From assembly GCA_051715345.1 (NCBI GenBank), contig JBPXJQ010000004.1, positions 89,019 through 110,668 of the forward strand: a DNA stretch of 21,650 nt, given 5' to 3'. Source of the DNA: Candidatus Blackallbacteria bacterium. GTDB lineage: Bacteria > Cyanobacteriota > Sericytochromatia > UBA7694. Below, one piece after another: positions 1 through 21,650 of the stretch. Within the stretch, counting starts at the first letter, position 1, and the number at the start of each line of letters is the position of its first letter. The notes beneath the pieces were generated by a model. It saw only the letters and a program-made list of their open reading frames with translations, was not told the DNA's origin and did no database searches. A program made the position numbers and the translations under genes.

Positions 1-461
1 CTGTAAGCAGCGGTATCGACATCAATTGAAAAGGTTGAAAGTGGGTTTTTTAAGGCCTCCAGAAAGGGATTCTCTGCAATTTTGTCGTAGCCTTCGGTGT
101 TAAATTCTTTATCTGTTGGGCTCTGATCTTTGGGGGTCATATCCTGGGGGGCCTGTCTCAGAAGTGGGCTTTCGTTCACCTTGCCACCCGTTACCATGCC
201 AGTGGTGACAGGTTTATTGGCCAGGGCTTCGGATTTGAGTTTGCGGGGGGGAGCGGGGGCCTGAAGGTTCATCAGTTTTTTTCCGTCATCGGATTCTTCG
301 GTGTTTAGTTGATCGACTTTGGGAGGCGCTGTTTGGGTTTTATCGGCGATCTGTGAGCCCTCTTGGTTGGCATAACAGCTGCTCAGGAGCAGCAAGAGGG
401 TCAGGCTGAGAGACAAAGGGGCTTTAAACGGGACTTTGAAAGAGATGGATTTGCGGTTCAT
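1..461 (-). CDS. Lipoprotein with a YfbK/BatA-like von Willebrand factor A N-terminal region. Only the 5' part is present; the 3' end lies beyond the window edge.
   Basis: The minus-strand ATG is at 461..459 and is preceded by GGAGG (474..470) at 8-nt spacing. It translates as [33 protein letters not shown], a signal peptide with a lipobox-like LSSC. Further on, [33 protein letters not shown] matches the conserved N-terminal motif (NTE.Y..I.EN.F......PLSTFS.DVDTASY) of YfbK-type VWA proteins. The reading frame stays open to position 1. The gene is missing from the ORF track because it is truncated by the edge. Confidence 0.6.
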
Positions 462-516
462 GGGGGCTTCCTCCGGGGTGGTTTGATTCAAAGACACACC
501 AACCCTTCACAGGTGT

Positions 517-2394
517 TCAATCCAGAAAATTGCCCGCTGGGTCCGAAAGCGGGGAAAGGGCCTGAACGTGGTAGTGATCATCAGTTGCTTGCAAAAAAGG
601 CAGAGTTGAGGCACTTAAGATCACCCGCTTGAAGCTGGGATCACCTTCATCGTAATGGGCTTCTCCACCCAACAGAGACCAAGGGCCCTGGAATTTGATG
701 CGCCCATCGGCGGCTTTAACGGTGAGGGTATAGTTCTGTGCCACCCGTGTGGGAGAGCAAAGTTTTGCGCCAGGATAGCCCGCAGGGGCCTGTAGGCAGG
801 ATTCAAGCGTGTCGGCCATGCCGCCGGAGATATTCAGGCTGTGTGTTTTGAGCAACATCGGTTCGCTAAAAGTCAATGAAAAGGCCAAAGCACGCATGGG
901 CAGTTCTATTTGTGCCACTTGCTCCAAGCGCGGTGGGGTGGTGTCGGCCTGCACCTCAAAGGCCAGGGCCTCTTCAAAGTCGCCATCGGTGAGCTTGAAG
1001 TGTTTCTCTCTGCGGGCCACGCCGCTTTTGTCTTTTATATCGCGCTGATGATTGCCAAATGAATCGAAAGCCAGGGTATAGATTGGCAACTTGGCAGGAT
1101 CTTTGTCTGTGGGCAGGGCTTTGCCAGGTTTAAAGGCAAAGGTCGCTTGGGTGTCGTCGGCATTCCAGGAGATATCAAAGGCCGAGCTGTCGAAGATGGG
1201 GGTGCCTGTTTGGTATTGGTTGAGATTGCTGTAGTTGGGTAAAAGCACAGGGGATGGCGGCCTGGGAGGGGAATAAATGTAAGGAACAGGATCTGGCGCT
1301 GTGAACATGGCGTTTATTTGACTGGTTCCCACTGTGAGTTTGCGAGGGGCAAATGCCCGAATAGCAAAGGTGTCTTCTACACTTTGACGATCCATGGGCT
1401 CAGAAAAGGTCAACACAAAAGCGGTATTGGGGGACAATAGCTTTTGATAGCGGCTGGGCAAGGCAAGTGTGACTTCCGGCTTGTCGCTTAAACCATTGTA
1501 ATTCTGAGAAAAGTTCTCTGTGAGCGGATCATCATCTGTTCCAAAGTCATGTCGATTTGAATTTGGAGAGCCGTGGTTGTTACCGGTGAGCACTTCATAC
1601 CTGATTCGCGTTGTATAGCCAGGTTTGGTTGCTTTTATTTCAAGCACAATCCCTGAAGGATTACAAGGAAATTCATAATTCCCAGTCTTTGTATGAGTTT
1701 CATCAAAAAAGGGCAAAAAGCTTTTCATGTGACGGATTTCAATTTTAACGTTATCCAGCAATTGATGCTGATCTGAAAAAACCTTGCCTCGTAAATTATC
1801 CCACCCTGAAAGCCAAGTAATAACATCTAATTCTGGGGGAATGGGATATTGTATGGGACATACCGTTTCTGGAGAAATATGACTAAAGTTAAAGGGGTTA
1901 CCAGATTCCAAAATAATCTTTTTGAGACTTGGGTAATGGAGTGTTTGTTTTCCTGGCAAAATAAGCGGTTCCTCAAAAAACGCATGAATTTGGTGAATCA
2001 TTTTGTTTTCTGAATTGAAGGCTTCTAAAGAGAGAGATGTGATGCCAATCAAATCGGTTAAGCTCAATGAAGCCTTGTTTTGAGAAAATTTTTGGGCATG
2101 GATTTTCTCATTTAATAAAAGCCGGTAATATTGAACCTGTAAAACAGGTTCCCACGTGAGTTGGAGAACATCTGGAATTTTGGGTAAAACCCTTACAATG
2201 GGCTCAACATCAGAGGTAGGCCGTGACAAAACAGCAGATGGCGTGGGACTGGCTAAAATTGCTGGAGATATTGTAGCGCTGGGAATGGGGCTGGGTTTAG
2301 GCAGAATCCCTTGAGTTGTGCAGGCACACTGGCTGCTCAATACCAATGCCAGAAAAATACAGACTGAGACGGTTCTGTGATTGTGGAAACTCAT
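517..2394 (-). CDS. Secreted multi-domain surface protein, paralog 1 of 4. It has a signal peptide, a P/S/T linker, a CarboxypepD_reg-like domain and SbsA/Big_5-type Ig-like domains.
   Basis: This is a 625-aa ORF. The N-terminus MSFHNHRTVSVCIFLALVLSSQCACTTQG is a hydrophobic signal, followed by a Pro/Ser/Thr-rich linker. IKATKPGYTTR is a CarboxypepD_reg/PEGA-like motif. FSEPMDRQSVEDTF and FSEPMLLKT are Big_5 hallmarks. The conserved HFKLTDGDFEEA is present, and the C-terminal DPAGN is typical of a Big_5 domain end. The start overlaps the stop of the upstream paralog by 4 bp. Confidence 0.8.
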   Translation of the reverse strand: MSFHNHRTVSVCIFLALVLSSQCACTTQGILPKPSPIPSATISPAILASPTPSAVLSRPTSDVEPIVRVLPKIPDVLQLTWEPVLQVQYYRLLLNEKIHAQKFSQNKASLSLTDLIGITSLSLEAFNSENKMIHQIHAFFEEPLILPGKQTLHYPSLKKIILESGNPFNFSHISPETVCPIQYPIPPELDVITWLSGWDNLRGKVFSDQHQLLDNVKIEIRHMKSFLPFFDETHTKTGNYEFPCNPSGIVLEIKATKPGYTTRIRYEVLTGNNHGSPNSNRHDFGTDDDPLTENFSQNYNGLSDKPEVTLALPSRYQKLLSPNTAFVLTFSEPMDRQSVEDTFAIRAFAPRKLTVGTSQINAMFTAPDPVPYIYSPPRPPSPVLLPNYSNLNQYQTGTPIFDSSAFDISWNADDTQATFAFKPGKALPTDKDPAKLPIYTLAFDSFGNHQRDIKDKSGVARREKHFKLTDGDFEEALAFEVQADTTPPRLEQVAQIELPMRALAFSLTFSEPMLLKTHSLNISGGMADTLESCLQAPAGYPGAKLCSPTRVAQNYTLTVKAADGRIKFQGPWSLLGGEAHYDEGDPSFKRVILSASTLPFLQATDDHYHVQALSPLSDPAGNFLD

Positions 2395-3300
2395 GGTATC
2401 AATACCTTCAAGGGAGTTTGGCTGTTTGAAATTGGGTTGCCAGCCGGGTCAACAATATCAGCATTGGCGATGATTTCGATTTGACCCCCTGAGACAAAAG
2501 CGGGATGGGAGATTTGCGTACTCAAGACAATCGTTCTAAAACTGGCATCCCAAGCTGCATAACTGGCTTCTCCCCTCAACCTAGACCATGGCCCCTGGTA
2601 GCCAACCCGGCCATCAGGGCCTGTGACCTTGATTTGGTAATTTTCAGCAGCCTTGCTGGCAGTACAGGCTTTCGCCCCCGGAAAACCTGCCGGGGCCTGC
2701 TTGCACGAGGGCAACTCATCGGCCATTCCCCCGGCAATATTTAAACTGTAAGTTTTAAGCAACATCGGCTCGCTGTACTGGAGCAATAGTGTGGGCATTT
2801 GCCCAGAAAAACCAGCCCAAAGGGCCGCTTGCAGGCTGGGCATTTGCTGATCTGCTTTGACTTGAAACTGGTATGCGTCCTCAAAATCGCCGTCGGTCAA
2901 TTTGAAATGTTTTTCTTTGCGTTCTACGCCTGTTTTGTCGCGCAGGGTGTTTTTTTCATTTGTGAAATGTTTAAACGCCACTTGGTAATGGGGGGTAAAT
3001 TCGGGGTTTTTATCTGTGGGCAAAGACAAGCCTGGTTTGAATTGAAAGGTCACTTGGGTATCATCCGTATTCCAGGAAATGTCAAAGGCAGATGCGTCGT
3101 AAATGGGGGTACCAATCCCTGACTCTGCATTGCTGGCGATCAGACCATTGCCGTGTAATGTGTACTTAAATCCCATTTCTGAAGGGAATTTATTGATGGT
3201 GTTATCCACAGATAATTTGTGGTTTTTAAAGCTGCGCACAGTAAATGTATCTTCTACTGACTGTCGATCCATGGGTTCAGAAAATTTGAGGGAGAACAGA
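2222..3300. repeat. Direct repeat, copy A (~1.1 kb). It covers the 5' end of paralog 1, the gene junction and the 3' half of paralog 2.
   Basis: Long nucleotide stretches are nearly identical to 3735..4820. For example 2391..2470 matches 3901..3980, and 2560..2940 matches 4073..4450 at about 90% by eye. The + strand ORFs 2505..2744 and 3692..4273 translate to almost the same peptide. Similarity decays near 3300/4820. The end points are approximate. Confidence 0.7.
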
Positions 3301-3905
3301 GTATCTGGAGATACACGAAAACCATTGCGAGAGGGATAGACTTGGGTGATTTCAGGGAGATCGCTCAAACCGTTATAATCGGCTGAATAGCCGCCAATAG
3401 ATTTAGAAGAGCCAAAATCGAACCGGTAGGGTGTGGTGGGATCTTCTTTATATATACTGGTTTTGTCGGTCGTTTTACGGGGAGTATATCCTGGTTTTGT
3501 GGCGATTATTTTGACTTGAATGCCAAGTGGAACTTGGGTTATCTGGTATTTCCCATTCACAGTCTGGGTTGAGCCAAAGAAGGGAACGTCAGGATGGATA
3601 CTTTCTACAGTGATTTGAACTCCATCCAGAGGTTGGTGATTGTCATCATAAACCCAACCTTCAATAATTTCATGGTGTTCTTGTCTCACGGGTGGTCTAT
3701 CAGCCTGTAACTCAGAAGGTTTTGGGGTGGGTCGTGGCAGAACAGCAGATGGCGTGGGACTGGCTAAAATTGTTGGGGAAACAGAAGCTCGGGGAATGGG
3801 GCTGGGTTCTGGCAGAACCCCTTGAGTTGTGCAGGCACACTGGCTGCTCAATACCAATGCCAGAAAAAACCAGCCTGAGACAGCTCTGTGATTGTGGGAA
3901 CTCAT
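2391..3905 (-). CDS. Secreted multi-Ig-like surface protein, paralog 2 of 4. It is a chimera with an N-terminus like paralog 1 and a C-terminal half like paralog 3.
   Basis: This is a 504-aa ORF. The signal peptide MSSHNHRAVSGWFFLALVLSSQCACTTQG is nearly identical to that of paralog 1. Motifs present are IIATKPGYTPR, FSEPMDRQSVEDTFTVRSFKNHKLSV, HFKLTDGDFEDAYQFQVKADQQMPSL and YSEPMLLKTYSLN. The C-terminal ~330 aa are about 90% identical to paralog 3. Confidence 0.85.
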   Translation of the reverse strand: MSSHNHRAVSGWFFLALVLSSQCACTTQGVLPEPSPIPRASVSPTILASPTPSAVLPRPTPKPSELQADRPPVRQEHHEIIEGWVYDDNHQPLDGVQITVESIHPDVPFFGSTQTVNGKYQITQVPLGIQVKIIATKPGYTPRKTTDKTSIYKEDPTTPYRFDFGSSKSIGGYSADYNGLSDLPEITQVYPSRNGFRVSPDTLFSLKFSEPMDRQSVEDTFTVRSFKNHKLSVDNTINKFPSEMGFKYTLHGNGLIASNAESGIGTPIYDASAFDISWNTDDTQVTFQFKPGLSLPTDKNPEFTPHYQVAFKHFTNEKNTLRDKTGVERKEKHFKLTDGDFEDAYQFQVKADQQMPSLQAALWAGFSGQMPTLLLQYSEPMLLKTYSLNIAGGMADELPSCKQAPAGFPGAKACTASKAAENYQIKVTGPDGRVGYQGPWSRLRGEASYAAWDASFRTIVLSTQISHPAFVSGGQIEIIANADIVDPAGNPISNSQTPLKVLIP

Positions 3906-4820
3906 GGTATCAATACCTTCAAGGGAGTTTGGCTATTCGAGAGGGGGTTGCCCGCTGGGTCAACAATATCAGGATTGGCGGTGATTTCAACTTGGGCTCC
4001 TGTCACAAAAGCAGGATGAATAGATTTAGAGCTGAGCACGATGGTTCTATAACTGGCATCCCAAGACGCATAACTGGCTTCTCCCCCCAGCCTAGACCAT
4101 GGCCCCTGGTAGCCAACCCGGCCATCAGGGCCTGTGACCTTGATTTGGTAATTTTCAGCAGCCTTGATGGCGGTACAGAGCTGGGCCCCCGAAAAGCCTG
4201 CCGGAGCCTGTTTGCAAGAGGGGAGTTCATCAGCCATGCCACCGGCCAAATTCAAGCTGTAAGTTTTGAGTAACATGGGTTCGCTGTACTGGAGCAAAAG
4301 CGTGGGTGTTTGTCCCGAAAAACCAACCCAACGGGCCTCTTTTAAGCTGGGCATTTGCTGATCTGCTTTGACTTGAAACTGGTATGCGTCCTCAAAATCG
4401 CCATCGGTCAATTTGAAATGTTTTTCTTTGCGCTCGACACCTGTTTTGTCACGCAGGGTGCGGTTTTCATTTGTGAAATGTTTAAAAGCCACTTGGTAAT
4501 GGGGGGTGAATTCGGGGATTTTATCTGTGGGCAAGGACAAACCTGGTTTGAATTGAAAGATCACTTGGGTATCATCCGCATTCCAGGTGAAATTAAAGGC
4601 GGATGAATCGTAAATGGGGGTGCCGTTGCTTATTTCGTAAAAATGAGGCGATCCAAAATGGGTATTTGCATCTTTCCCGTTCAAAGTATACTTAAATCCT
4701 TGTTCAGAAGGGAATTTATTCATGGTATTATCCACAGATAATTTGTGGTTTTTAAAGCTGCGCACAGTAAATGCATCTTCTACAGACTGTCTGTCCATGG
4801 GTTCAGAAAACTGCAAGATG
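3735..4820. repeat. Direct repeat, copy B. It covers the 5' end of paralog 2, the gene junction and the 3' half of paralog 3.
   Basis: This is the partner of 2222..3300. It is offset by 1511 bp, which is exactly the length of paralog 2 including its overlaps. It contains a ~90-nt indel relative to copy A around 4610..4700. The end points are approximate. Confidence 0.7.
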
Positions 4821-5581
4821 AAATCTGTTATAGGAGACAAGCCTGTACCATTGCGGGCAGGGGTCACTAAAGTGACTTCGGGTTGGTCGCTCAGACCTTC
4901 GTAAGAAGCAGAAAAATCTTCTGTAAAGGGATTTGCATCTCTACCAAAATCATAGCGGTTATAATTGGGCTGCCCCCGGTTAGCCTTGATTATTTCTACT
5001 CTGCTGCGGGACGTATATCCTGGTTTTTGAGCGGTTAAATTCACCCTAGCACCTGCCGCAGCACAGGGAAATTGATAATAACCCCTCTGTGTTTTCTGCT
5101 CGGAGTAATAGGAAAATGAATAATTATTAAATTCTGCCGTTACCCGTACATCCTCCATCAACTGAGCATTATCATCAAAAATATAGCCTTGTAAAATATC
5201 ATTTCTTGAGACCCAATCTAGCTCGGCCTGATAGACTGCAGCACAACTTTCCGGTGTAAGACCAGTTTTGGTTGGAGAATAGACACTTGGTGTTGGCATA
5301 GGAAAGTAGGGGGGGAAGGGCTTTGATGTGGGACTTACATAGGGAGTCGCTGTTGGAACCAACGCAGGTGAGGCCGTGGCAATGGGTTGCACTGCCATTG
5401 TTGGCGAAGTCGAAGGAGTCGTTGTTTGCAACGGACTGGGACTGGCAGTGGGGCTCAAAGGAGTTGAATTGCAGGCGCTGATTCCCCCCAGCCCCAAAAG
5501 CAAAATACCCCCAAGCGACAGAGCTGAGCGCTGTCTGTGAAAATGGCTGTAAAGGATGTCTTTCAATGCACGATCAGCCAT
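3902..5581 (-). CDS. Secreted or lipoprotein multi-Ig-like surface protein, paralog 3 of 4.
   Basis: This is a 559-aa ORF. The N-terminus contains LSLGGILLLGLGGISAC, a lipobox-like ISAC, followed by a long S/T/P linker. Motifs present are LTAQKPGYTSRSRVEI, QFSEPMDRQSVEDAFTVRSFKNHKLSV and HFKLTDGDFEDAYQFQVKADQQMPSL. The C-terminus VDPAGNPLSNSQTPLKVLIP is nearly identical to that of paralog 2. The stop overlaps paralog 2's start by 4 bp. Confidence 0.85.
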   Translation of the reverse strand: MADRALKDILYSHFHRQRSALSLGGILLLGLGGISACNSTPLSPTASPSPLQTTTPSTSPTMAVQPIATASPALVPTATPYVSPTSKPFPPYFPMPTPSVYSPTKTGLTPESCAAVYQAELDWVSRNDILQGYIFDDNAQLMEDVRVTAEFNNYSFSYYSEQKTQRGYYQFPCAAAGARVNLTAQKPGYTSRSRVEIIKANRGQPNYNRYDFGRDANPFTEDFSASYEGLSDQPEVTLVTPARNGTGLSPITDFILQFSEPMDRQSVEDAFTVRSFKNHKLSVDNTMNKFPSEQGFKYTLNGKDANTHFGSPHFYEISNGTPIYDSSAFNFTWNADDTQVIFQFKPGLSLPTDKIPEFTPHYQVAFKHFTNENRTLRDKTGVERKEKHFKLTDGDFEDAYQFQVKADQQMPSLKEARWVGFSGQTPTLLLQYSEPMLLKTYSLNLAGGMADELPSCKQAPAGFSGAQLCTAIKAAENYQIKVTGPDGRVGYQGPWSRLGGEASYASWDASYRTIVLSSKSIHPAFVTGAQVEITANPDIVDPAGNPLSNSQTPLKVLIP

Positions 5582-7526
5582 TTAAGGTCAGGCTCACGTT
5601 GTTACGGGCGCTATCCACAGTATTGCCTGCGGGGTCCATCACATCTGCTTCAACCCGAAAGGTGAGACGCTCTCCAATTTCAAACAAGCTCGGAATTACC
5701 CCTTCGCTCAATGTTTGACCGCTGCTTAAAAGCTGAGCCAAACGGGTTTGAACGTCGGGATCTGTTGCTGCTCCGGCAAAGGCGGGCAAAGTCAGCCTGA
5801 CACTTTTGCGGCTGGCATCGCGGCTGAGATACTCCACCCGCCCACCGAGTTGGGCCCAACTGCCTTCGAATCGGGTTTGCCCCAGCGCGTCTTTGACCAG
5901 CAAAAGGTAGTTTTCAGCCGCTTTGGCAGATGTGCAATTGATGGCCCCTGGATATCCAGCGGGGGCCTGACGAAAGGCAGTAAGGCTATCACTCATGCCG
6001 CCCGCAATGTTCACGCCCAGGGTTTCGAGTAACATGGGCTCGCTGTAGTGCAGAATAAACCCGGCCCCGCGTGGCGACTGGGGATCGGGAGTGATATGGG
6101 TCAGCGTGGGTTTGACTTCGTCGATTTTGATAGAGAATTTGTAAGACTCTTCAAAATCGCCATCGGTCAGTTTAAAGTGTCTGTCACTCCGTGAAATACC
6201 GCTCTTGTCTGTCAACACGCGGTCTCCACCTGAGAATGCACGGAAAGCAACATTGTAATTGGGAACCAGGTTGCTGTCTTTGTCGGTCGGCAGCTGTTTT
6301 CCTTCTTTAAAGGAAAAAGTGGCTTCAGAGTCATCGCTGTTCCAGCTGATATTAAAGGCCGCTTTGCCCCAAATTGGGGTGCTATTGCCGGGCAAGAAAT
6401 TAGTGGCAACGAGATCTTTGCCAATCACCGTATTGGCCCCTCCTGCCACACGCAGATTGTCTGCATCCACCGTCAGTTTTCGATTGTTAAAAGCGAAGAT
6501 CATGAAATTGTTTTCAACTGTCTGTTTATCCATGGGCTCAGAGAATTTCAGCACGAAGCTGGTGTTGAACGCTACACCGGAGCCATTGCGGGCCGGAGTG
6601 ACCATCACCACTTCGGGTTTGTCGCTCAGTGCGTTGTATGCGGCAGAGAAGGTCGCTGCGCCTCCATCGGTACCGAAATCAAATCGATTTCCCTCAATGC
6701 CTTGCGGACGAGATTTGACAACTTCCACTCGACGTCGTTCTGAATAGCCTGGCTTTGAGGCCTTTATAGTCAGTGATATTGAACTTGGCACATTTTTGAA
6801 AGCATATTGGCCATAAACATCACCCTCTGTTTTATCATAATAATTAAAGGTCTGAGAATTTGAATAGACCTCCACCGTAACGCCTGAAAGGGGTGAAAAG
6901 CTGTCATCATAAATCTTGCCATAAAACGAATTCAATTCAAGATCTTCACAATTACACCTTCGGAATGGGGTTGGAGTAGGATCCGGTTGTCGTGGGGTAC
7001 GTTTGGGGGTTGGGCTCACTGAATTTATCGTATTTCGAAAGGGTTCAACTGAAGCAAGAGGGCTGGGTATAGGGTAAGGGATAGGACTGGGTATAGGGTA
7101 AGGTGTAGGGCTGGGAAGGCGGGCCTGGAGCTCAAATCTGAGTTCTCCCACAGCAGTCACCTGACCTCTGGCGTTGATACTTTCCAATTTAAGGGTGTGG
7201 CTGCCCAGGGCATAGCCGGTTAAATCCAATATCTCGCGCGGCAAGACCAAATTGTCTTTGTAAAGCTTGCCATCGAGCCAGAGGCGGTAGCTATAGGCCT
7301 CGGGTTGGGTATTCCAGCGCAGCTCATAAAAGGCGGAGGCAATGGGTTCCAGGCTGAGATTGAGGCGTGCATGCGGCAAGGAAGCCCTTGAATCAGGTGT
7401 GGGAGTCGGCGACGAGGGGGAGGGGAGAGAGAGCGGGGATTGAGAGCGGGGTTCACAGCCCCAAAGCCCCAAAACCAGACAGCAGCAAAAGATTTGAGTG
7501 GATAACCCCTGTGATCTGACCATCAA
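5574..7526 (-). CDS. Secreted or lipoprotein multi-Ig-like surface protein, paralog 4 of 4 and the most divergent. It has a YPIPSP repeat linker.
   Basis: This is a 650-aa ORF. The N-terminus MMVRSQGLSTQIFCCCLVLGLWGCEP is a signal with a lipobox-like LWGC. The Pro-rich repeat PSPTPYPIPSPIPYPIPSP is present. Motifs present are IKASKPGYSERRRVEV, KFSEPMDKQTVENNF, HFKLTDGDFEESYKF and HYSEPMLLETLGVNIAGGMSD. The C-terminus carries MDPAGN. The gene overlaps paralog 3's start by 8 bp. Confidence 0.85.
   Translation of the reverse strand: MMVRSQGLSTQIFCCCLVLGLWGCEPRSQSPLSLPSPSSPTPTPDSRASLPHARLNLSLEPIASAFYELRWNTQPEAYSYRLWLDGKLYKDNLVLPREILDLTGYALGSHTLKLESINARGQVTAVGELRFELQARLPSPTPYPIPSPIPYPIPSPLASVEPFRNTINSVSPTPKRTPRQPDPTPTPFRRCNCEDLELNSFYGKIYDDSFSPLSGVTVEVYSNSQTFNYYDKTEGDVYGQYAFKNVPSSISLTIKASKPGYSERRRVEVVKSRPQGIEGNRFDFGTDGGAATFSAAYNALSDKPEVVMVTPARNGSGVAFNTSFVLKFSEPMDKQTVENNFMIFAFNNRKLTVDADNLRVAGGANTVIGKDLVATNFLPGNSTPIWGKAAFNISWNSDDSEATFSFKEGKQLPTDKDSNLVPNYNVAFRAFSGGDRVLTDKSGISRSDRHFKLTDGDFEESYKFSIKIDEVKPTLTHITPDPQSPRGAGFILHYSEPMLLETLGVNIAGGMSDSLTAFRQAPAGYPGAINCTSAKAAENYLLLVKDALGQTRFEGSWAQLGGRVEYLSRDASRKSVRLTLPAFAGAATDPDVQTRLAQLLSSGQTLSEGVIPSLFEIGERLTFRVEADVMDPAGNTVDSARNNVSLTLNG
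7060..7115. repeat. Short tandem DNA repeat with a ~24-nt unit in about 2.3 copies. It encodes the YPIPSPIPYPIPSP linker of paralog 4.
   Basis: The sequence reads ctgggtatagggtaagggataggactgggtatagggtaaggtgtagggctggg, which is directly visible as an imperfect tandem duplication. Confidence 0.6.
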
Positions 7527-7656
7527 AAATCCCCCTCAAAAGCAGCGATTTTTCTCAAGACGCTGTTTCGAAGGGGGATGTTCCCATTTGGGCAAAAAAC
7601 CTGCGAAGGCCCCGCTTTTTCAGAGAATTCAGCCAGGTTTGCCGCTGTAAGCAGGC

Positions 7657-8877
7657 TTACGCGCCTTCAACCACCTGCGCGATTTGGATCAAACGGTTTT
7701 CACTAAAGTCTTTGACGGCGCTGTAGAAGGTGTGGCTGTCCACGGGCACCCGGCGGCGCACATCACCGAGAGTCTGGCCGGTGGTCAGGCCCCAGAAACA
7801 GGCTTCGGCATGGGGGTCGATATTCTCGGGGGGGGCCTCGGCCAATTTAATCACCACCGAATCATCGGGGAACATCTCCAACATGACTTTGGTTTCGTCG
7901 CTGCGGCGCATGCCTTCGATAATCAAATGCATGACGGAGACCTGAATGGTGCGACCGGGGGGCTCTTCGTTTTCGTTAAACGAAAAGGTGCCATCGGTCC
8001 AGCCCATCATCTCATAAGCGGCCATGGGGCCGGTTAAAAAGGGCGGGGAGCCAGAGGTTTCGGCATAATGCACTTCGCCCCGCTGCAGGTAAATTTTGCC
8101 CGATTGGGGTTTGCTGTTGATCGTGACCGAACCCGTTTTGGCATCGTTGCCGAGCATTTGCAGAATATTGGGCGGAATGATCACCGAGAGGCTGCCGCGC
8201 ACAGCCCCTGTGTCGTCTTCTTCCATTAGGGTTTTCATTTCGCGGACCTCGGCCTCGGATTGTTCGAGCTTGCCGAGAATCATATTCAGTCGGGTATTGT
8301 CTTCTTTGAGCTTGTCGAGGGTTTGTTGCAGCAAGGTATAGAGCTGAGAGTTCTCAATTGCGATCGCAGCAATATTGGCCAAAGACGAAAAGAGAATCAG
8401 GTCGGTTTCGTCGAAGGTGCCTTCGATTTTATTGAGCACCTGCAAAATACCAATCACCTGATCGCCCGAACGCGACAAGGGCACACAGATAATGGAACGG
8501 GTTTGGAACTTGCTCTCTTCGTCCACGCCTTTGTAAAAGCGCTCGTCTTTGGTCACGTCGGGCACAATCAGAGGCCTGCCTGTTTCGGCGACATGGCCTG
8601 CAATCCCTGTGCCCACTGGAATGCGCATGCTCTCAACCACTTTGCCCGCTTCGCCCTGGGCAAAGTGAAAAACCAGCTCTTGGGTGCTTTTATCCAAAAG
8701 TGCCAGCGAAGAAGCTTCGGCATTCATCACGATTTTGGCCACGTCAATAATGGTACGCAGCAAGACATCCAACTCCATTGAGGAGTTAATGCTGTTGTTG
8801 ATTTCCAATAATACCTGAAAGCGTTCGACGAATTTCAGGGCTTCTTCGTGGTTCAGATTCTCGATATCTATATCCAT
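7657..8877 (-). CDS. Protein with a GAF domain, a coiled-coil and a DUF4388 domain. It is a putative sensor or regulator.
   Basis: This is a 406-aa ORF. The N-terminal ~180 aa have a GAF-like pattern (LLRTIIDVAKIVMNAEASSLALLD...GIAGHVAETGRPLIVPDV...SIICVPL...GILQVLNK). A coiled-coil segment follows (LQQTLDKLKEDNTRLNMILGKLEQSEAEVREMK). Then comes a DUF4388-like block (GSLSVIIPPNILQMLGNDAKTGSVTINS...GKIYLQRGEVHYAE...GTFSF). The RBS GAGGT lies 6 nt upstream of the ATG. Confidence 0.7.
   Translation of the reverse strand: MDIDIENLNHEEALKFVERFQVLLEINNSINSSMELDVLLRTIIDVAKIVMNAEASSLALLDKSTQELVFHFAQGEAGKVVESMRIPVGTGIAGHVAETGRPLIVPDVTKDERFYKGVDEESKFQTRSIICVPLSRSGDQVIGILQVLNKIEGTFDETDLILFSSLANIAAIAIENSQLYTLLQQTLDKLKEDNTRLNMILGKLEQSEAEVREMKTLMEEDDTGAVRGSLSVIIPPNILQMLGNDAKTGSVTINSKPQSGKIYLQRGEVHYAETSGSPPFLTGPMAAYEMMGWTDGTFSFNENEEPPGRTIQVSVMHLIIEGMRRSDETKVMLEMFPDDSVVIKLAEAPPENIDPHAEACFWGLTTGQTLGDVRRRVPVDSHTFYSAVKDFSENRLIQIAQVVEGA
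7838..7845. repeat. G8/C8 homopolymer tract inside the GAF-DUF4388 CDS.
   Basis: The sequence ctcgggggggggcctc contains 8 consecutive G. On the coding strand it reads GCC CCC CCC GAG, encoding APPE. This is the longest homopolymer I noticed in the window. Confidence 0.5.
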
Positions 8878-8934: not shown

Positions 8935-10590
8935 TTAACCGGGAAACAGCCGAACAATATTGCTCTGGGCTCGCACTTCGAGTTCTTCGGGCTTTTCTGC
9001 GCTTTTGTCGCCCACGGCTTTGTAAAAGTCGGTATTGTAGGGGCGGGTGCGAATCACCACCGGCATGGGCACAGCATAACCCAAGATCAGCGCCTGTTGT
9101 TTGGGATCGAGCTGCGAGAGCACCGTGCGCAAACTCTGGCTGCCACTCACGCCCGTAAAAACCGCGTCAATGTCTTTGTCGTCGTTGAGCAGGGCCGTGA
9201 TGCGTGTGCCGACCTGGCTGAGAATTTCGCTGTCGATGCTCGACGGGCGCTGATCGACAATCAGCAGGGTGACTGAATATTTGCGCATCTCACGGGCGAT
9301 GGTGCCAAAGATCGTCTGACGGGCAATCGCCGGAGCCAAAAATTTATGCGCCTCTTCGATCGTGATCACCAATTGGCGGGGTTTGACGTTGTTGAGCGGG
9401 TCGGCGTTGTAGATGTCGGATTTATCGACATAGCTCTGGTGAATCCGGCGGGTGATGATATTGGTGGCCAGCATATAACTGAGCAGGCTGTTGTGGCCGC
9501 CAAATTCGAGCACCACGTGTTTGCCGCTTTCGAGGTATTTCAGAATCATCTGAATCGCGTCGCCACTGCCCTCATCTTTGATATAACTCAGGTTCGTGAC
9601 CTTGATCAATTTGCGCTGCAGGGCCTTGAGCGCACCGCTGTGGCCCTTGGCACTGGCGACAAAGTCGTCGATCTCGTTGGCCGACATCTGCAAAAATTGC
9701 TTGAGCCAATTGCGGCCCAGGGCCTCTTCGAGAATCATCGCCGACTCAATGCTGGCCTCGGAGAGATTGAGTTCCTGTTTGATCAGGGCCAGGTCTTCGA
9801 TCTGGATCTGGCGCAGAGGAATGCTGAGTTCTTGGGCATCTTTGATTCCGCGCTGGCGCGAGGACTTGAGATCGAGGGTAAAAACCACCACATCGCGGCC
9901 AAAGAGCTGTTTAAGGCCTTTGACCACTTTTTCGCCTTTGTTTTCACTCAGGGCCTGCCAGCCATATTCGTTGTGCATGTCAAAGATCAAATTGACAGCC
10001 ACCTGCTTTTTGATAATCCCTGAAAGCACGAGCCGGGTTAAAAAAGACTTGCCTGTGCCGGATTTGCCAAAAATCGCGTTACTGCGTTCGACCAACCGGT
10101 CGAGATCGAGACAGAGCGGCACGTCCATATCCAGGGGCATGCCAATAAAAAAACGGGCCTTGTGTGGATCGTCTTCTTGGCCAAAAACGGTGGCAAAATC
10201 TTGCTCTGAAGCGACCTTCACGGGGGCAAAATGGGAGGGAATGGTTTTGACTGGGCGCAATTCCTCTTCGGGGTCGGCGTCAGCACTGAGGGCATTTTTT
10301 TCGAGCATCAACATCGGCTGGAGCGAAACCGTGCCCAAGGTGCCTGTGCCCTGCAAAATCTGAGCCAAAAAATCGCCCTGAGCTGGCGGGTTGAGCAAAA
10401 TCTGGGGATTGGAGGTGGTCAGAGCGACATCGGTGATCAGGCAGAAAAAGCGCTTGAGCTGGCCTTCGACCACCACAAATTGCCCCACGCGAATGTCTTC
10501 CACGTTCTGATCAGCTGCCAGCCGCATTTTTAAGCCACCCGAAAGTGAACCTTCAATAATGGTGCCCAAAACAGGGGAGGGATGAGGCAA
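8935..10590 (-). CDS. HerA-like ATPase of the DUF87 / FtsK-HerA P-loop superfamily, with an N-terminal HAS-barrel.
   Basis: This is a 551-aa ORF. The N-terminal beta-rich segment MPHPSPVLGTIIEGSLSGGLKMRLAADQN...VGQFVVVEGQLKRFFCLITDV resembles the HerA HAS-barrel. The Walker A motif is FGKSGTGKSFLTRLV. A later hydrophobic strand ending in acidic residues, VVLEFGGHN or LLIVDQRPS, is a Walker-B candidate. The C-terminus LILGYAVPMPVVIRTRP is typical of HerA/DUF87 ends. Confidence 0.7.
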   Translation of the reverse strand: MPHPSPVLGTIIEGSLSGGLKMRLAADQNVEDIRVGQFVVVEGQLKRFFCLITDVALTTSNPQILLNPPAQGDFLAQILQGTGTLGTVSLQPMLMLEKNALSADADPEEELRPVKTIPSHFAPVKVASEQDFATVFGQEDDPHKARFFIGMPLDMDVPLCLDLDRLVERSNAIFGKSGTGKSFLTRLVLSGIIKKQVAVNLIFDMHNEYGWQALSENKGEKVVKGLKQLFGRDVVVFTLDLKSSRQRGIKDAQELSIPLRQIQIEDLALIKQELNLSEASIESAMILEEALGRNWLKQFLQMSANEIDDFVASAKGHSGALKALQRKLIKVTNLSYIKDEGSGDAIQMILKYLESGKHVVLEFGGHNSLLSYMLATNIITRRIHQSYVDKSDIYNADPLNNVKPRQLVITIEEAHKFLAPAIARQTIFGTIAREMRKYSVTLLIVDQRPSSIDSEILSQVGTRITALLNDDKDIDAVFTGVSGSQSLRTVLSQLDPKQQALILGYAVPMPVVIRTRPYNTDFYKAVGDKSAEKPEELEVRAQSNIVRLFPG

Positions 10591-10695: not shown

Positions 10696-11709
10696 CTAGA
10701 GTGTCAGAGATGAATGCCCCGTATAACCCCCCTGCAACATTTTGACATATTGCACCCGTTCAAAAGCAGAGGGGTCGGGGCAGTACATTTGGCTGACACT
10801 GCCCTGCAATTGGCGAATAGAATCATATTCATGTTCTTCCAGCCAATGGATCAGCTCCAATTCCAGTGTGCGCACATAGCCAATACCCCGGCGCAGCAAA
10901 ACCGAGGCCATTTGGGTAATTTTGGCGCCCGCCATCAGCAATTTGAGCACGTCTTTGGCCTGATGCACCCCTGTGCTGGCAGCCAGATCGGCTTCTATCC
11001 GGCCAAAGAGCAATCCGATCCAGGTCAGAGGCAGGCGCAATTCCTGGGGCGAACTCAAGAGCAAATGGGGCTCGACCTCCAAGGTCTCGATATTGATGTC
11101 TGGCTGGTAAAAGCGATTAAACAGCACCAAGCCATCGGCACCCAGCGCCGAAAGCTGGTGGGCAAAATGACCAAAATTGGTAAAAAACGGGCTCAGTTTT
11201 ACGGCCACAGGAATCGTGATACTGCATTTGATCTCATGCACAATGTCGAGATAGTTTTGCTCGATCACCGCTGCTGAGAGCATGGGATCGGTTGGGATTT
11301 GATAAAGATTGAGTTCAAGCGCATTGGCCCCAGCCGCTTCCAGCTCTTTGGCATAGCGAATCCAGCCCCCCCGACTGTAGCCATTGAGACTGGCAATAAT
11401 CGGGATTTTGAGGGATTGCCGGGCAGCGGCAATATGTTCGAGATAGCGTTCGGGGCCCACGTGAAAATGGGGCGAACCCGGAAAAAAACTCTGGGCTTCG
11501 GCAAAGCTATCGCTGGCAAAGCTGTGGTAATGCTCCAATTCATCGTGGCTTTGCACCAATTGTTCTTCAAACAGGGAGTGCATGACCACAGCTGAAATAC
11601 CCGCTTCTTCCAAGGCGCGGATATTGTCGAGGTTTTCGGAAAGGGGAGAGGCAGAGGCCACCAAAGGTGTGCGCAATTCCATGCCCAGATAATGGGTAGA
11701 CAGATCCAT
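10696..11709 (-). CDS. Dihydroorotate dehydrogenase-like TIM-barrel flavoprotein, the DHOD-family partner commonly found next to PFOR.
   Basis: This is a 337-aa ORF. MDLSTHYLGMELRTPLVASASPLSENLDNIRALEEAGISAVVMHSLFEEQ matches the N-terminal signature of DHOD-like proteins found downstream of por/nifJ. The ATG is 2 nt after the nifJ TAA (TAAaaATG). A GGAGA RBS sits inside the nifJ 3' end. Confidence 0.8.
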   Translation of the reverse strand: MDLSTHYLGMELRTPLVASASPLSENLDNIRALEEAGISAVVMHSLFEEQLVQSHDELEHYHSFASDSFAEAQSFFPGSPHFHVGPERYLEHIAAARQSLKIPIIASLNGYSRGGWIRYAKELEAAGANALELNLYQIPTDPMLSAAVIEQNYLDIVHEIKCSITIPVAVKLSPFFTNFGHFAHQLSALGADGLVLFNRFYQPDINIETLEVEPHLLLSSPQELRLPLTWIGLLFGRIEADLAASTGVHQAKDVLKLLMAGAKITQMASVLLRRGIGYVRTLELELIHWLEEHEYDSIRQLQGSVSQMYCPDPSAFERVQYVKMLQGGYTGHSSLTL

Positions 11710-11711
11710 TT

Positions 11712-14700
11712 TTAATTTTCTCCTTGGTTCGGGGTCGTTTCAGCCATCTGCTGGTAGAGTTTCCAGCGGGAATGAATTTCTTGTTGGGCCTGTTCCAACA
11801 AGAGTTGGGCCTGTTGGGGCCGTGTGCTGCCCAGCAAACGGAAGCGATTTTGCCGGTCGTAGTAATTTTTGAGCGGCATTTTCGGACCTTTGCTGTCGAG
11901 TTGCAAGGGTGATTCCCCTTTTTCGGTGCGCGCAGGGTGATAGCGATAAAGTGGCCAGGCCCCGCTGTCTACCGCTGCTTTGTGTTCTTGCATGCCCGTA
12001 TTCATGGGAATGCCGTGGGCGATACAGTGGCTGTAGGCAATAATAATCGAAGGGCCAGGCCAGGCTTCGGCCTCCAAGAAGGCCCGCAGGGTCTGCTCAT
12101 CTTTGGCACCCATGGCCACTTTCGCCACATAGACATGGCCATAAGTCATGGCCATCATGCCCAGGTCTTTTTTGCCCAGGGGTTTGCCCCCGGTGGCAAA
12201 TTTGGCCACGGCCCCTTTGGGCGTCGATTTGGACATCTGCCCGCCGGTATTGGAATAGACTTCGGTATCGAGTACCAAAATATTCACATTGGCCCCACTG
12301 GCCAGCACATGATCGAGACCCCCAAAGCCTATGTCATAGGCCCAACCATCACCGCCAACCATCCACAGGCTCTTGCGCACCAAGGCATCAGCCAATTCCA
12401 TCAATTGTTGAACCTGTTGCGCTTGGGATGGTTCAAGGCCTTGAGACAGTTCAGCCAGTGCAGTTTTGAGTACATTGACCCTTTCGCGTTGGGCATAAAT
12501 TTCGGACTCCTCACTTTGGTCGGCCCCAATCAGGGCCTGCACCAGATTCCAGTCCAAGGCCGGCTCTAATTTGAGCAATAATTCCAGCGCCATTTCCTGT
12601 TGTTTGTCCAGGGCCAAACGCAGCCCCAGTCCAAATTCGGCATTGTCTTCAAAGAGTGAATTGGACCAAGCCGGTCCCCGACCTTCGCTGTTTTGGCTCC
12701 AGGGGGTGGTGGGCAAATTGCCACCATAAATTGAGGAACAGCCCGTGGCATTGGCCACCAGCAGCCGGTCACCAAAGAGTTGGCTGAGCAATTTGAGATA
12801 AGGCGTTTCGCCGCAGCCAGCACAGGCGCCCGAAAATTCAAACAGCGGCAACATGACTTGTTGCTGGCGCACGGAGGTCTGTTTGATCATGCTGCGCTTG
12901 AGTTCTGGCAATTTCAGGAAATAATCCCAATTTTCGACCTCGACGGCCTTGTGAGCGGGTTGGGGAGACATATTGATGGCTTTGAGCCGGGCCTCGGATT
13001 TGTTGCGGGCAGGGCAGACGTCGACGCAGATGCCACAACCGGTACAGTCTTCGGGGGCGACCTGAAGGGTATAATTGAGGCCGTCCCAACTGCGCTCGCT
13101 GGCAGAGACCGAGCGAAACCCAGCTGGGGCCGTGTTTAACAAAGCGGGTTCGTAAACCTTGGCGCGGATCGCGGCGTGGGGGCAGACCAGGGCACATTTG
13201 TTGCACTGAATGCAGACAGCCGGATCCCAGATCGGGATTTCGGCTGCCAGATTGCGTTTTTCCCATTGTGAGGTGGCCGTGGGATAGGTTCCATCGACAG
13301 GCAGGGCACTGACAGGCAAGAGATCACCTCTGCCAGCCAACATCGCACCCAACACGTTTTGAACAAATGCGGGGGCATTTGTCGGGACAGAGAGATGACG
13401 TTCACGGGTGCTGTTGCAGGTTTCTGGCAGGGGAATCTGATAGAGATGGGACAGGGTCTGATCGACGGCCTCCAGATTGCGTTGGATTACCGCTTCGCCT
13501 TTGGCGGCATACGATTTGCGAATGGCTCCCCGGATCGCATCGAGGGCCTGTTCGCGGGGTAAAACTTCTGAAATGGCAAAGAAACAGGTTTGCATGATCG
13601 TATTGATGCGGCCACGCATGCCACTCATATTGGCCACCCGTCCGGCATCGATCACATAGAAGTGGGCTTTTTGTTCAATTAAACGGGCCTGAACGGGGTG
13701 AGGGAGCTGGTCCCAGACGGTCTCTTTGTCCAAAGGACTGTTGAGCAGAAAAACGCCCCCCGGCAACAGGGCATCAAGCAAATCTGGCCGCTCCAAAAAC
13801 ATCGGCTGGTGACAGGCAATAAAATGGGCCTGCTGAATCAAATAAGGGGCTTCAAAACGCTCAGGGCCAAAACGCAGATGCGAAATGGTAATGGCCCCAG
13901 CTTTTTTGGAATCGTAGACAAAATAGCCTTGGGCGTGTTGCGCGGTTTCTTCGCCAATGATCTTGATCGTGTTTTTATTGGCGCCGACGGTACCATCAGA
14001 GCCCAGACCATAGAAGATGCCACAATTGGCCGCCTCCGGCTCATGAAAAAGCAGGGGATCATAAGCCAAATGGGTAAAGCTGACATCGTCTTCGATCCCA
14101 ATTGTAAAGCCGTGTTTGAGTTGAGCACTGTTTAAATGGGCAAAGATGCCTTCGGCCATCGCCGGGGTAAACTCTTTTGAGGAAAGGCCAAAACGCCCGC
14201 CAATGATTTTGGGAAATTCTGCCAAATCGCCCAGCATATGGGCCTGTTGCAGCGCAGCGACAACATCAAGAAAGAGAGGCTCCCCCCCACTGCCGGGTTC
14301 CTTGCAACGATCCAGCACAGCCACCCGTTTGACACTGTTAGGCAGGGCCGAGACAAAAGCCGAAGCTCCAAACGGCCGATAGAGTCGGACCTTGAGCACC
14401 CCCACTTTTTCGCCACGTGCATTGCATTGCTGAACGGCCCGAAGAACCGTTTCGGCCCCTGAACCCATCACCACAATCACCCTTTCGGCTTCTGGATGGC
14501 CCTGGTATTCGTAGAGCTTGTACTGACGTCCAGTCAAGCTGGCAAATTGGTCCATCTGGGCCTGCAAAAGGGTGGGCAGGGCGGCATAAAAGGGATTTAC
14601 GGTTTCGCGCGACTGAAAGTAGACATCGGGATTTTGGGCTGTGCCCCGAATAAACGGGTGTTCAGGGGAGAGGGCCCGCTTGCGATGCGCTTGAATCCAA

Positions 14701-15299
14701 AGGGGATCGATCAGGGTTTTTAAGACCGTGTCACTCAAGACCTGAATTTTGCTGATTTCATGTGACGTGCGAAAGCCATCAAAGAAGTGGATAAAGGGGA
14801 TTCGACTCTGCAAACTGGCTGCCTGGGACAAGAGCGCAAAGTCGTGGGCCTCTTGGACACTGTTTGAGGCCAACAGGGCGCAACCTGTACCACGGCAAGC
14901 CATCACATCGCTGTGATCACCAAAGATCGAGAGGCCCTGGGCGGCCAAGGCACGCGAAGCCACGTGCAGAACCAGTGGCGTCAATTCTCCCGCTATTTTG
15001 TATAAATTGGGAATCATCAGCAAGAGGCCTTGGGAAGCCGTAAAACTGGTGGCCAGGGTGCCGCCTTGCAGAGCACCATGTAAAGCTCCCGCTGCGCCGC
15101 CTTCGCTTTGCATTTCAACCAGACGGGGCACGGTGCCCCAAAGATTGGGCCGGGCGGCGGAAGCCCAGCTGTCTGACCATTCACCCATGGAAGAAGAGGG
15201 GGTGATTGGATAAAGGGCAATAACTTCATTCAGCCGATAGGCAATATCTGCAACGGCTTCATTGCCGTCCATGGTTTGGGCTATTTCTGCGTGCTGCAT
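11712..15299 (-). CDS. nifJ: Pyruvate:ferredoxin (flavodoxin) oxidoreductase, the single-polypeptide NifJ/Por type.
   Basis: This is a 1195-aa ORF. The N-terminus MQHAEIAQTMDGNEAVADIAYRLNEVIALYPITPSSSMGEW is canonical for PFOR. Two 4Fe-4S ferredoxin motifs are present (CIQCNKCALVCPHAA and CTGCGICVDVCPA). The TPP-binding motif GGDGWAYDIGFGGLDHV is present. The RBS GGAGA lies 5 nt upstream of the ATG. Confidence 0.95.
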   Translation of the reverse strand: MQHAEIAQTMDGNEAVADIAYRLNEVIALYPITPSSSMGEWSDSWASAARPNLWGTVPRLVEMQSEGGAAGALHGALQGGTLATSFTASQGLLLMIPNLYKIAGELTPLVLHVASRALAAQGLSIFGDHSDVMACRGTGCALLASNSVQEAHDFALLSQAASLQSRIPFIHFFDGFRTSHEISKIQVLSDTVLKTLIDPLWIQAHRKRALSPEHPFIRGTAQNPDVYFQSRETVNPFYAALPTLLQAQMDQFASLTGRQYKLYEYQGHPEAERVIVVMGSGAETVLRAVQQCNARGEKVGVLKVRLYRPFGASAFVSALPNSVKRVAVLDRCKEPGSGGEPLFLDVVAALQQAHMLGDLAEFPKIIGGRFGLSSKEFTPAMAEGIFAHLNSAQLKHGFTIGIEDDVSFTHLAYDPLLFHEPEAANCGIFYGLGSDGTVGANKNTIKIIGEETAQHAQGYFVYDSKKAGAITISHLRFGPERFEAPYLIQQAHFIACHQPMFLERPDLLDALLPGGVFLLNSPLDKETVWDQLPHPVQARLIEQKAHFYVIDAGRVANMSGMRGRINTIMQTCFFAISEVLPREQALDAIRGAIRKSYAAKGEAVIQRNLEAVDQTLSHLYQIPLPETCNSTRERHLSVPTNAPAFVQNVLGAMLAGRGDLLPVSALPVDGTYPTATSQWEKRNLAAEIPIWDPAVCIQCNKCALVCPHAAIRAKVYEPALLNTAPAGFRSVSASERSWDGLNYTLQVAPEDCTGCGICVDVCPARNKSEARLKAINMSPQPAHKAVEVENWDYFLKLPELKRSMIKQTSVRQQQVMLPLFEFSGACAGCGETPYLKLLSQLFGDRLLVANATGCSSIYGGNLPTTPWSQNSEGRGPAWSNSLFEDNAEFGLGLRLALDKQQEMALELLLKLEPALDWNLVQALIGADQSEESEIYAQRERVNVLKTALAELSQGLEPSQAQQVQQLMELADALVRKSLWMVGGDGWAYDIGFGGLDHVLASGANVNILVLDTEVYSNTGGQMSKSTPKGAVAKFATGGKPLGKKDLGMMAMTYGHVYVAKVAMGAKDEQTLRAFLEAEAWPGPSIIIAYSHCIAHGIPMNTGMQEHKAAVDSGAWPLYRYHPARTEKGESPLQLDSKGPKMPLKNYYDRQNRFRLLGSTRPQQAQLLLEQAQQEIHSRWKLYQQMAETTPNQGEN

Positions 15300-17051: not shown

Positions 17052-17335
17052 AATTTTAACAGATGCTGTCTTTCTTTGCTGGTTTTTGCCAAATGTTCCC
17101 CGTCTCGGCAGGCTCTGTTTTTTGTTGATTAAAATACGATTAAATATCCCTGCTAATCAGCAGAAAAAAAACAACTTCAGGGTATACACTGAGACAAGGT
17201 GGATTGTGACCAAACCAACATTGTTTTCACAAAAATAATGTGAATATTTAAAGGCCAGCTCAGTTATGATTCTCTCAGCAGCTTTACCCATTGCCGACCT
17301 GCTATTGCCCGCCTCAAGCAAGAGGAGACAATCGT
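17052..17335. promoter_or_regulatory. A 284-bp AT-rich divergent intergenic region. It presumably holds the promoters of the REC-DUF4388 gene (leftward) and the IPT/TIG-NHL lipoprotein gene (rightward).
   Basis: This is the longest non-coding stretch in the window. It contains a direct repeat TTTAACA(N11)TTTAACA near 17043..17071, a CTGCTaatcAGCAG inverted repeat followed by A8 (~17150..17172), and an AGGAGA RBS at 17323..17328 that is 7 nt before the TTG at 17336. Confidence 0.4.
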
Positions 17336-20998: not shown

Positions 20999-21650
20999 TG
21001 AACAACTTAAAACAAACTTTTCGACTTTTTACAGCCTTAACGGTCTCATTGCTTGTCTTTGGGAGCTGTAGCGATGTTCAGCTGAATTATGGGGCGCCAC
21101 TGAGCGGACTGGTGAATCTCAGTGAGCGCAACCGCAATGCCAATAATCCCAATACCCAAGAAAATTTTGAGCAGCAGCGGGTGCCTGTTCCCTCTCCCAC
21201 GCCCAACGATCGGGGCCTTGGAGACGGAGGAAGTACAGGCCCTGCTGGAGCGGGTAAAACGACAACCCTGCCCCCGGTGGCAACAATCCCTGAGAAAACA
21301 CCCCCTGAGGCGCCTGTTAAAGGGGTCAGTGATACGGTTCCAGCATTAAAATTACGGGCAATTCCGGGCCGTGTCGAATTGTCTGGTTTTGGCAGCGAAC
21401 AGTCCATTCAGCTCTTGCTTCAAGATCTCAATGGCAATAATTTGGATTTAACAAAATTCGAATTTAATTGGGAGTCGCTCTCGCCAAGCCTGATCAGCGT
21501 GGACAATAAAGGTGTTATTCGCTCCAAAACCACCTCTGGCAGCTACAAAGTGGTGGTCAGCCTCAAGTCTGATCCCGCTGTCAAAGCTGAGATCGAAGTG
21601 ATCATCAGTGCGCCATCCTCAGGGGGTGGCGGCGGCGGCGGGGGTGGCGA
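20998..21650 (+). CDS. Lipoprotein with a Big_2 (bacterial Ig-like group 2) domain and a Gly-run linker. Only the 5' part is present; it continues beyond the window.
   Basis: The ATG at 20998 overlaps the upstream TGA (TGATG). MNNLKQTFRLFTALTVSLLVFGSCSD is a lipoprotein signal. LKLRAIPGRVELSGFGSEQSIQLLLQDLNGNNLDLTKFEFNWESLSPSLISVDNKGVIRSKTTSGSYKVVVSL fits the Big_2 pattern. The sequence ends in SGGGGGGGG, encoded by a (GGN) run at 21618..21650. The frame is open to the window end. Confidence 0.7.
   Translation, partial: MNNLKQTFRLFTALTVSLLVFGSCSDVQLNYGAPLSGLVNLSERNRNANNPNTQENFEQQRVPVPSPTPNDRGLGDGGSTGPAGAGKTTTLPPVATIPEKTPPEAPVKGVSDTVPALKLRAIPGRVELSGFGSEQSIQLLLQDLNGNNLDLTKFEFNWESLSPSLISVDNKGVIRSKTTSGSYKVVVSLKSDPAVKAEIEVIISAPSSGGGGGGGGG

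Follow-up and report, generated by a model that had tools for sequence, protein, structure and literature searches.

The DNA considered here, in the following called the window, is a stretch of 21,650 nucleotides (nt) from a Candidatus Blackallbacteria bacterium (assembly GCA_051715345.1, contig JBPXJQ010000004.1, positions 89,019 to 110,668 of the forward strand) and contains a tandem array of four related genes on the minus strand. These genes are named g1 to g4 by rising coordinate and are transcribed in the order g4, g3, g2, g1. The array begins with g4 (5574..7526), for which 650 amino acids (aa) are given in the list of open reading frames (ORFs), and continues with g3 (3902..5581, 559 aa), g2 (2391..3905, 504 aa), which has the minimal architecture, and g1 (517..2394, 625 aa). 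The listed start of g4 is a TTG codon directly next to an ATG codon at 7523, and the latter, preceded at a distance of 8 nt by a GAGGGGG box, is more likely to be the true start. Alignment of the four proteins with MAFFT revealed homology over their full length, with 38–48% identity to g1, a mean column identity of 56%, and a common core of roughly 430 residues. The motifs FSEPMD, HFKLTDGDFE, SEPMLL, and DPAGN do not vary among the four proteins. Because the alignment extends over the full length and includes these invariant motifs, the similarity reflects homology rather than chance. The first-pass annotation, which was made from the sequence of the window, had described four paralogs of a single architecture that overlap by 4–8 bp, diverge in the N-terminal half and at the extreme C-terminus, and are followed after 55 bp by a gene for a lipoprotein with a VWA domain. 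All of these points were confirmed: neighboring array genes overlap by 4, 4, and 8 bp, and the differences between their products lie in the N-terminal region and in loops and inserts near the C-terminus.

The VWA gene is represented in the window by its 5′ part (1..461, minus strand), as the window edge cuts it. Its start at position 461 is exactly 55 bp past the stop of g1 and is preceded by a GGAGG box. The encoded protein has a lipoprotein-type signal (LLLLSSC) and an N-terminal vWF_A domain (PF12450, E 1.3e-9), and it is homologous to a full-length vWF_A/VWA/YfbK_C protein of a syntenic metagenome-assembled genome (MAG; locus L001) with an E value of 1.8e-85, which places it in the YfbK type. 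At the other end of the array, a terminator-like hairpin with a T-run (7603..7615, minus strand), detected by a consensus scan only, is located 3′ of the upstream GAF/PATAN gene and is likely the 5′ boundary of the array transcription unit. Since this hairpin lies upstream and the same scan detected no terminator-like site between g1 and the VWA gene, a single transcription unit from g4 through the VWA gene is plausible. Scans of the window for Rfam families and tRNAs detected nothing.

Domain architecture and structural models

Three beta domains can be distinguished in the core of the array proteins: a transthyretin-like domain, a beta domain B with the FSEPMD motif, and a beta domain C with the SEPMLL and DPAGN motifs. 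In the first-pass annotation, the first of these had been assigned to CarboxypepD_reg and at least two further domains to Big_5. The first Big_5 assignment was upheld. All four window copies match the profile (PF13205, gathering cut-off 23.6 bits), in each case limited to positions 3–56 of its 105 positions; the whole-protein scores of g4 (30.6) and g3 (25.9) are above the cut-off and those of g1 (21.5) and g2 (19.2) below it. Among 50 family members, 46 match Big_5 at E≤1e-3, the best value being 2.7e-10. The second assignment was not upheld, as domain C has no Pfam match in three of the window copies, even at E≤10, and comparison of domains B and C by hhalign aligned only a 31-column start motif (P-x-l...FSEPM; probability 88.6%). 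Domain C of one distant relative scores 20.8 bits against Big_5. The CarboxypepD_reg-like domain (PF13620, gathering cut-off 32.3 bits) is supported at the level of the family, of which 29 of the 50 members match at E≤1e-3; the window copies remain below the cut-off, with g2 and g4 scoring 26–30 bits.

The structure of g2 was modeled with AlphaFold2 from an alignment of 50 sequences (predicted local distance difference test, pLDDT, 84.3; predicted template-modeling score, pTM, 0.78), and the pTM value argues for a fixed packing of the domains against each other. In this model, the signal and the Pro/Ser/Thr tether (residues 1–75) are disordered and are followed by the transthyretin-like domain (residues 78–148, nt 3462–3674), which forms a sandwich of six to seven strands, by domain B (residues 176–350, nt 2856–3380), which has a low-confidence loop at residues 237–245, and by domain C (residues 353–504, nt 2394–2849), all encoded on the minus strand. 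The model of g4 (pLDDT 81.5) contains an additional seven-strand domain. Its layout comprises a signal with the lipobox LWGC, the additional, FN3-like domain (residues 50–135), a disordered Pro-rich linker (138–192), the transthyretin-like domain (198–269), domain B (about 300–470), and domain C with a helical insert (475–650). In g3, an ISAC lipobox and a Pro/Ser/Thr tether precede the transthyretin-like domain and domains B and C; in g1, the motif SQCAC is followed by an extra N-terminal region that aligns with the FN3-like domain of g4, then by the transthyretin-like domain and domains B and C. An FN3-like head is thus present in g1 and g4 and absent in g2 and g3.

All four proteins start with a hydrophobic segment that is followed by a cysteine and a stretch rich in Pro, Ser, and Thr (32–54% of residues). 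Lipoboxes were judged by motif only, the reference being a signal peptide that ends in [LVI][ASTVI][GAS]C. By this measure the lipobox of g3, which precedes a long tether with 54% Pro, Ser, and Thr, is canonical and that of g4 near-canonical, and most full-length relatives possess either a strict lipobox or a closely related motif of four residues with Cys as the last one (L[SVTN][AG]C type). An extracytoplasmic, lipid-tethered location of the array proteins is plausible. A pair of cysteines in domain C (C401/C414 in g2), present in g1 to g3, is consistent with a disulfide formed in an oxidizing compartment.

The domain types involved (Big_5, transthyretin-like, FN3-like) are already known, as is the habit of envelope families to be amplified in tandem and to recombine. 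What is new is the family itself, for which neither a family-level model nor a description exists. The NCBIfam scan of the array proteins returned no family, a search of PDB sequences with a profile of the four proteins returned only a marginal match to carboxypeptidase M (E 0.41), and literature searches found no paper on the family. The first-pass statement that no characterised family can be recognised thus agrees with our searches. In NCBI, members are named "Ig-like domain-containing protein", "carboxypeptidase regulatory-like domain-containing protein", or hypothetical protein. No enzyme domain was detected in any copy with Pfam or NCBIfam. Carboxypeptidase D, which contains the transthyretin-like domain of PF13620, differs in its attached peptidase domain, which the window copies, scoring below the Pfam cut-off, do not have. 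Sortase-anchored pilins and MSCRAMM adhesins were rejected as relatives, as there is neither an LPx[TSA]G motif nor a hydrophobic C-terminal tail.

Distribution, recombination, and selection

Beyond the first-pass annotation, the analysis brought to light a restriction of the family to one lineage, a recombination mosaic within the array, and recurrent links to VWA and GT41 genes. A word-indexed search returned 49 relatives, and all of those named by taxon belong to Candidatus Sericytochromatia or Blackallbacteria. The exhaustive profile search yielded 191 clusters (50% identity) at E<1e-30 and 620 at E<1e-10, the sampled named clusters being Sericytochromatia throughout. When each GTDB species was represented by one genome, a scan found 34 loci; 29 of them belong to Sericytochromatia MAGs or to "Cyanobacteria bacterium UBA7694". 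Another, on a 1.6-kb contig assigned to Bacteroidota, probably owes its family match to a binning error. The remaining four, from Bordetella, Betaproteobacteria, Planctomycetota, and a MAG of an uncultured proteobacterium, are weak, partial matches: the betaproteobacterial and other proteobacterial proteins (L037, L039) were rejected as members because Pfam shows only Big_5 or CarboxypepD_reg in common, and the ORF of the Bordetella MAG (L036) has no Pfam match. Judged from these searches, the family is confined to Sericytochromatia MAGs.

A scan of the fetched loci with hidden Markov models showed that arrays of two to five adjacent copies are the rule, and the MAG GCA_018780035.1 carries at least 15 family copies on six contigs. 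Its syntenic locus consists of genes for a DHO_dh-like protein, a DUF87 ATPase, a GAF/PATAN protein, a 130-aa ORF, five family members, and a YfbK-type VWA protein. The best match of g4 is the first array gene of two other genomes (70–71% identity), that of g1 is the last array gene elsewhere (52–53%), and g3 has orthologs at 67–82% identity. On these comparisons, the paralog classes keep their position in the array across genomes and show positional orthology. One class that three other genomes possess has no counterpart in the window array, and one MAG has an extra recent duplicate (76–77%).

The core segments are of nearly fixed length across the family. Variable in length are the N-terminal region (29–506 aa), the domain B loop (11–56 aa), and the domain C insert (25–445 aa), and among the additions that some relatives carry at the N-terminus are TPR repeats and an entire serpin domain (E 6e-104). 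The latter occurs in P0047, a protein of 753 aa from a Blackallbacteria MAG, in which a lipoprotein-type signal precedes the serpin domain and the transthyretin-like and Big_5 core follows it; this protein would be a membrane-tethered bacterial serpin.

Within the array, nucleotide identity in sliding windows is strongly uneven. Between g1 and g2 it amounts to 87–88% over the first 60 codons and to about 40–60% elsewhere; between g2 and g3 it is mostly 74–93% in the C-terminal half (with one window at 66%) and about 33–58% in the N-terminal half. A DNA repeat finder detected one periodic tract with a period of 1511–1526 bp and three repeat families (D1–D3) at 75–87% identity, the repeat pairs being 2215–2507 and 3726–4018 (87%), 2527–2826 and 4038–4337 (86%), and 3148–3387 and 4674–4913 (75%). 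They represent the two copies of a recombination or duplication tract of roughly 1.2 kb with 80–93% nucleotide identity by window, one of which (2215..3387) spans the g2/g1 junction and the other (3726..4913) the g3/g2 junction. By its pattern of identity, g2 is a mosaic whose 5′ end resembles g1 and whose 3′ half resembles g3, and which would have arisen by two later recombination or conversion events.

Nonsynonymous and synonymous differences (dN and dS) were estimated by the method of Nei and Gojobori; outside the tracts, synonymous differences are at or near saturation. Since dS is saturated in most comparisons, the array paralogs must be old. In the C-terminal tract of g2 and g3, dS is 0.55 and dN 0.09 (ratio 0.17), and in the leader tract of g1 and g2, dS is 0.22 and dN 0.11 (ratio 0.5), which indicates purifying rather than diversifying selection where the ratio can be measured. 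The first-pass annotation had regarded the family as diversifying; with dN/dS ratios of 0.17–0.5 where dS is unsaturated and a paralog order that is kept across genomes, this view could not be supported.

The same data bear on the idea that the array is a contingency or antigenic-variation set, that is, a store of interchangeable surface variants reshuffled by gene conversion to evade phages or predators. Tandem copies, two recombination tracts across gene junctions with 75–93% nucleotide identity, an array length that varies between related genomes (four as against five or more copies), and variable heads and loops all speak for it. However, the paralog classes are old and hold their positions across genomes, selection is purifying where measurable, the overlapping genes look co-expressed rather than singly expressed, and no inverted repeats (looked for in positions 1–8000), invertible elements, or simple-sequence tracts were found. 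We therefore consider a variation set very unlikely: conserved paralog order together with dN/dS ratios of 0.17–0.5 fits differentiated, conserved roles better than variation cassettes.

Gene neighbors and possible role in the cell envelope

Two kinds of genes recur beside the arrays. A YfbK-type VWA gene is located 3′ of the array in four genomes, i.e. that of the window and three others. Moreover, four MAGs, one of them with two examples, contain a separate subfamily in which a C-terminal VWA domain is joined to the transthyretin-like domain and domain B; such a fusion hints at a joint function of core and VWA domains. The array proteins themselves contain no VWA domain; among known systems, the YfbK-type VWA lipoproteins (vWF_A, VWA, and YfbK_C) describe the downstream neighbor.

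The second kind are genes for glycosyltransferases with TPR and GT41 domains (OGT-like), which adjoin arrays in at least seven independent loci of the family's more distant branch (L022 11967–16577; L017 11446–13683; L004 13816–16095; L002 7399–9837 and 18928–21108; also L003, L029, and L031) and in several of them directly follow the array. Their GT41 matches in Pfam cover the catalytic part of the profile (positions 76–223 and 369–525). Matches to PF24575 (TPR_Slam) near other arrays were set aside as probable generic TPR cross-matches because the proteins concerned end in GT41/GT9-type domains. Together with the Ser/Thr/Pro tethers, the GT41 adjacency suggests that members of the family may be glycosylated. 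Several arrays of the distant branch terminate in a gene for a conserved protein of about 490 aa, which lies close to the TPR-GT41 genes or immediately before them (L002 15316–16788; L003 15296–16777; L029 4056–5573; L031 1721–3142; L024 9392–10939); the protein has no Pfam match and a weak, three-segment similarity to the family profile (89–109 bits). The GT41 neighborhood is reminiscent of the HMW1 adhesin, which is paired with the GT41 glycosyltransferase HMW1C, in that genes of a presumably secreted surface family lie beside GT41 genes at these other loci; it differs in that the window contains no GT41 gene, the glycosyltransferases beside the other arrays carry TPR domains, and there is no two-partner secretion partner.

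The first-pass annotation had considered an S-layer-like or adhesin family, and the proteins could conceivably form a true S-layer-like lattice, lipid-anchored and probably O-glycosylated, whose contacts would be made by the conserved core. Big_5 is an Ig-like domain type found in such proteins, and the high copy number of the family, the long Ser/Thr/Pro tethers, and the TPR-GT41 genes at the loci of other genomes would fit as well. Structural similarity to SbsC, SlaB, and Sap is limited to single domains. Nevertheless, we regard a lattice of this kind as unlikely. No match to an SLH domain, a domain binding the secondary cell wall polymer (SCWP), or another known anchoring module was obtained in Pfam or NCBIfam even at E≤1, the GT41 link is missing from the window, and known S-layers usually consist of one or two abundant proteins rather than 15 or more paralogs. 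Compared with Big_5 proteins such as SbsA and SbsC of Geobacillus, the window copies match only half of the PF13205 profile, are much shorter, belong to a cyanobacteria-related lineage, and have a putative lipobox and a Pro/Ser/Thr tether instead of an SCWP-binding or SLH anchor.

The reading that we prefer, to which we assign a probability of about 0.5, is that the operon from g4 to g1, probably including the VWA gene, encodes extracytoplasmic, lipid-anchored envelope proteins that serve in envelope coating or adhesion. An acylated N-terminal cysteine and the long disordered Pro/Ser/Thr linker would tether each protein to a membrane and hold off from it a rigid core composed of the transthyretin-like domain, the Big_5 Ig-like domain, and a second, divergent Ig-like domain. 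We infer that this conserved core is a structural or assembly scaffold, and specificity would come from the variable sites, i.e. the N-terminal head (FN3-like in g1 and g4, none in g2 and g3, TPR or serpin in relatives), the loop of domain B, and the insertion site of domain C. Since the paralogs are old, under purifying selection, and conserved in order, differentiated, non-redundant roles are most likely, for example as partners of the VWA protein in one coat or adhesion complex. SusE/SusF-type proteins of Bacteroidota are surface lipoproteins with a lipid anchor, a flexible linker, and tandem beta-sandwiches, of which several paralogs occur per genome. The array family would resemble them in its N-terminal anchor, linker, tandem beta-sandwiches, and multiple paralogs; it differs in that neither a relationship in sequence nor, in the array proteins, a carbohydrate-binding module was detected, and no SusC/SusD-like neighbors are present in the window.

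Several findings weigh against this assignment. Foldseek searches of the PDB found no solved chain with the whole architecture, only generic multi-Ig chains with template-modeling scores of at most 0.22, and the fold matches of single domains are generic beta-sandwiches. The lipobox of g1 and g2 (SQCAC) is atypical. Finally, the conserved adjacency of the VWA gene is limited to a closely related syntenic locus and could for this reason be due to shared ancestry rather than function.

It is also conceivable, but in our view rather unlikely, that the proteins face inward, as periplasmic lipoproteins of the inner or outer membrane that act as spacers or scaffolds in envelope maintenance. In the periplasm, Ig-like domains serve to position L,D-transpeptidases or alpha-2-macroglobulin; one relative carries a fused serpin, and a recognisable surface-export signal is missing. 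On the other hand, variation in heads and inserts is seen more typically in exposed proteins, and the matches to such periplasmic systems are limited to single generic domains. L,D-transpeptidases were rejected because no YkuD match was obtained and the similarity is limited to Ig-like accessory domains, bacterial alpha-2-macroglobulin because no copy contains the thioester motif CxEQ and three or four beta domains stand against about ten MG domains.

A more far-reaching version of the lipid-anchored envelope reading would see in the family the main building block of the Sericytochromatia surface, a lipid-tethered, O-glycosylated, hetero-oligomeric coat with dedicated VWA and TPR-GT41 partners. 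The three-sandwich core with its invariant D-K-x-G-x-x-R...HFKLTDGDFE junction would form the assembly, and the FN3, TPR, and serpin heads and the insertion site of domain C would display swappable functions. We consider this version improbable as it stands. If true, it would imply an envelope organisation unlike that of photosynthetic cyanobacteria, in which S-layers of the RTX or SLH type are known.

The oxygenic cyanobacteria have an uncultured sister class without photosynthesis, the Sericytochromatia, and literature searches found no paper addressing the S-layer, the lipoproteins, or the cell surface of this class. With its 15 or more copies per genome, a family specific to the class can reasonably be taken as a first candidate for the covering of these cells, and its surface epitopes, for example, could be used to enrich or image them. 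The family is of interest chiefly for its lineage and for a possible partnership with VWA proteins and glycosyltransferases; otherwise, it is an ordinary lineage-specific, multi-domain envelope family that evolves by tandem duplication and gene conversion.

Other genes of the window

Directly upstream of the array is a gene for a regulator with GAF and PATAN (DUF4388/PatA_N) domains (7657–8877, minus strand), whose position is kept in the syntenic MAG. A further regulator (15453–17051, minus strand) contains two PATAN stretches and receiver domains. Divergent from this response-regulator gene, a gene on the plus strand (17291–20998) encodes a second large envelope or surface protein (1235 aa), in which a lipoprotein-like N-terminus is combined with four or more IPT/TIG domains (E 8e-32) and a beta-propeller of NHL repeats. 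This gene is followed by a plus-strand gene that runs off the window (21087–21650); its product has a lipoprotein-type signal (LLVFGSC), a poly-Gly run at the window edge, and no Pfam match. Between the two regulator genes lie a gene for a HerA-like ATPase with a HAS barrel and DUF87 (8935–10590, minus strand), which has no obvious NurA-type partner adjoining it, and a region (10696–15299, minus strand) encoding a pyruvate:ferredoxin/flavodoxin oxidoreductase (1195 aa, POR_N E 1e-77) and, after a gap of two bases, a DHO_dh-like TIM-barrel protein (337 aa, weak match with E 6.5e-9). The gene order DHO_dh-like, DUF87, GAF/PATAN is kept in L001, and the oxidoreductase and the DHO_dh-like protein possibly form a conserved pair.

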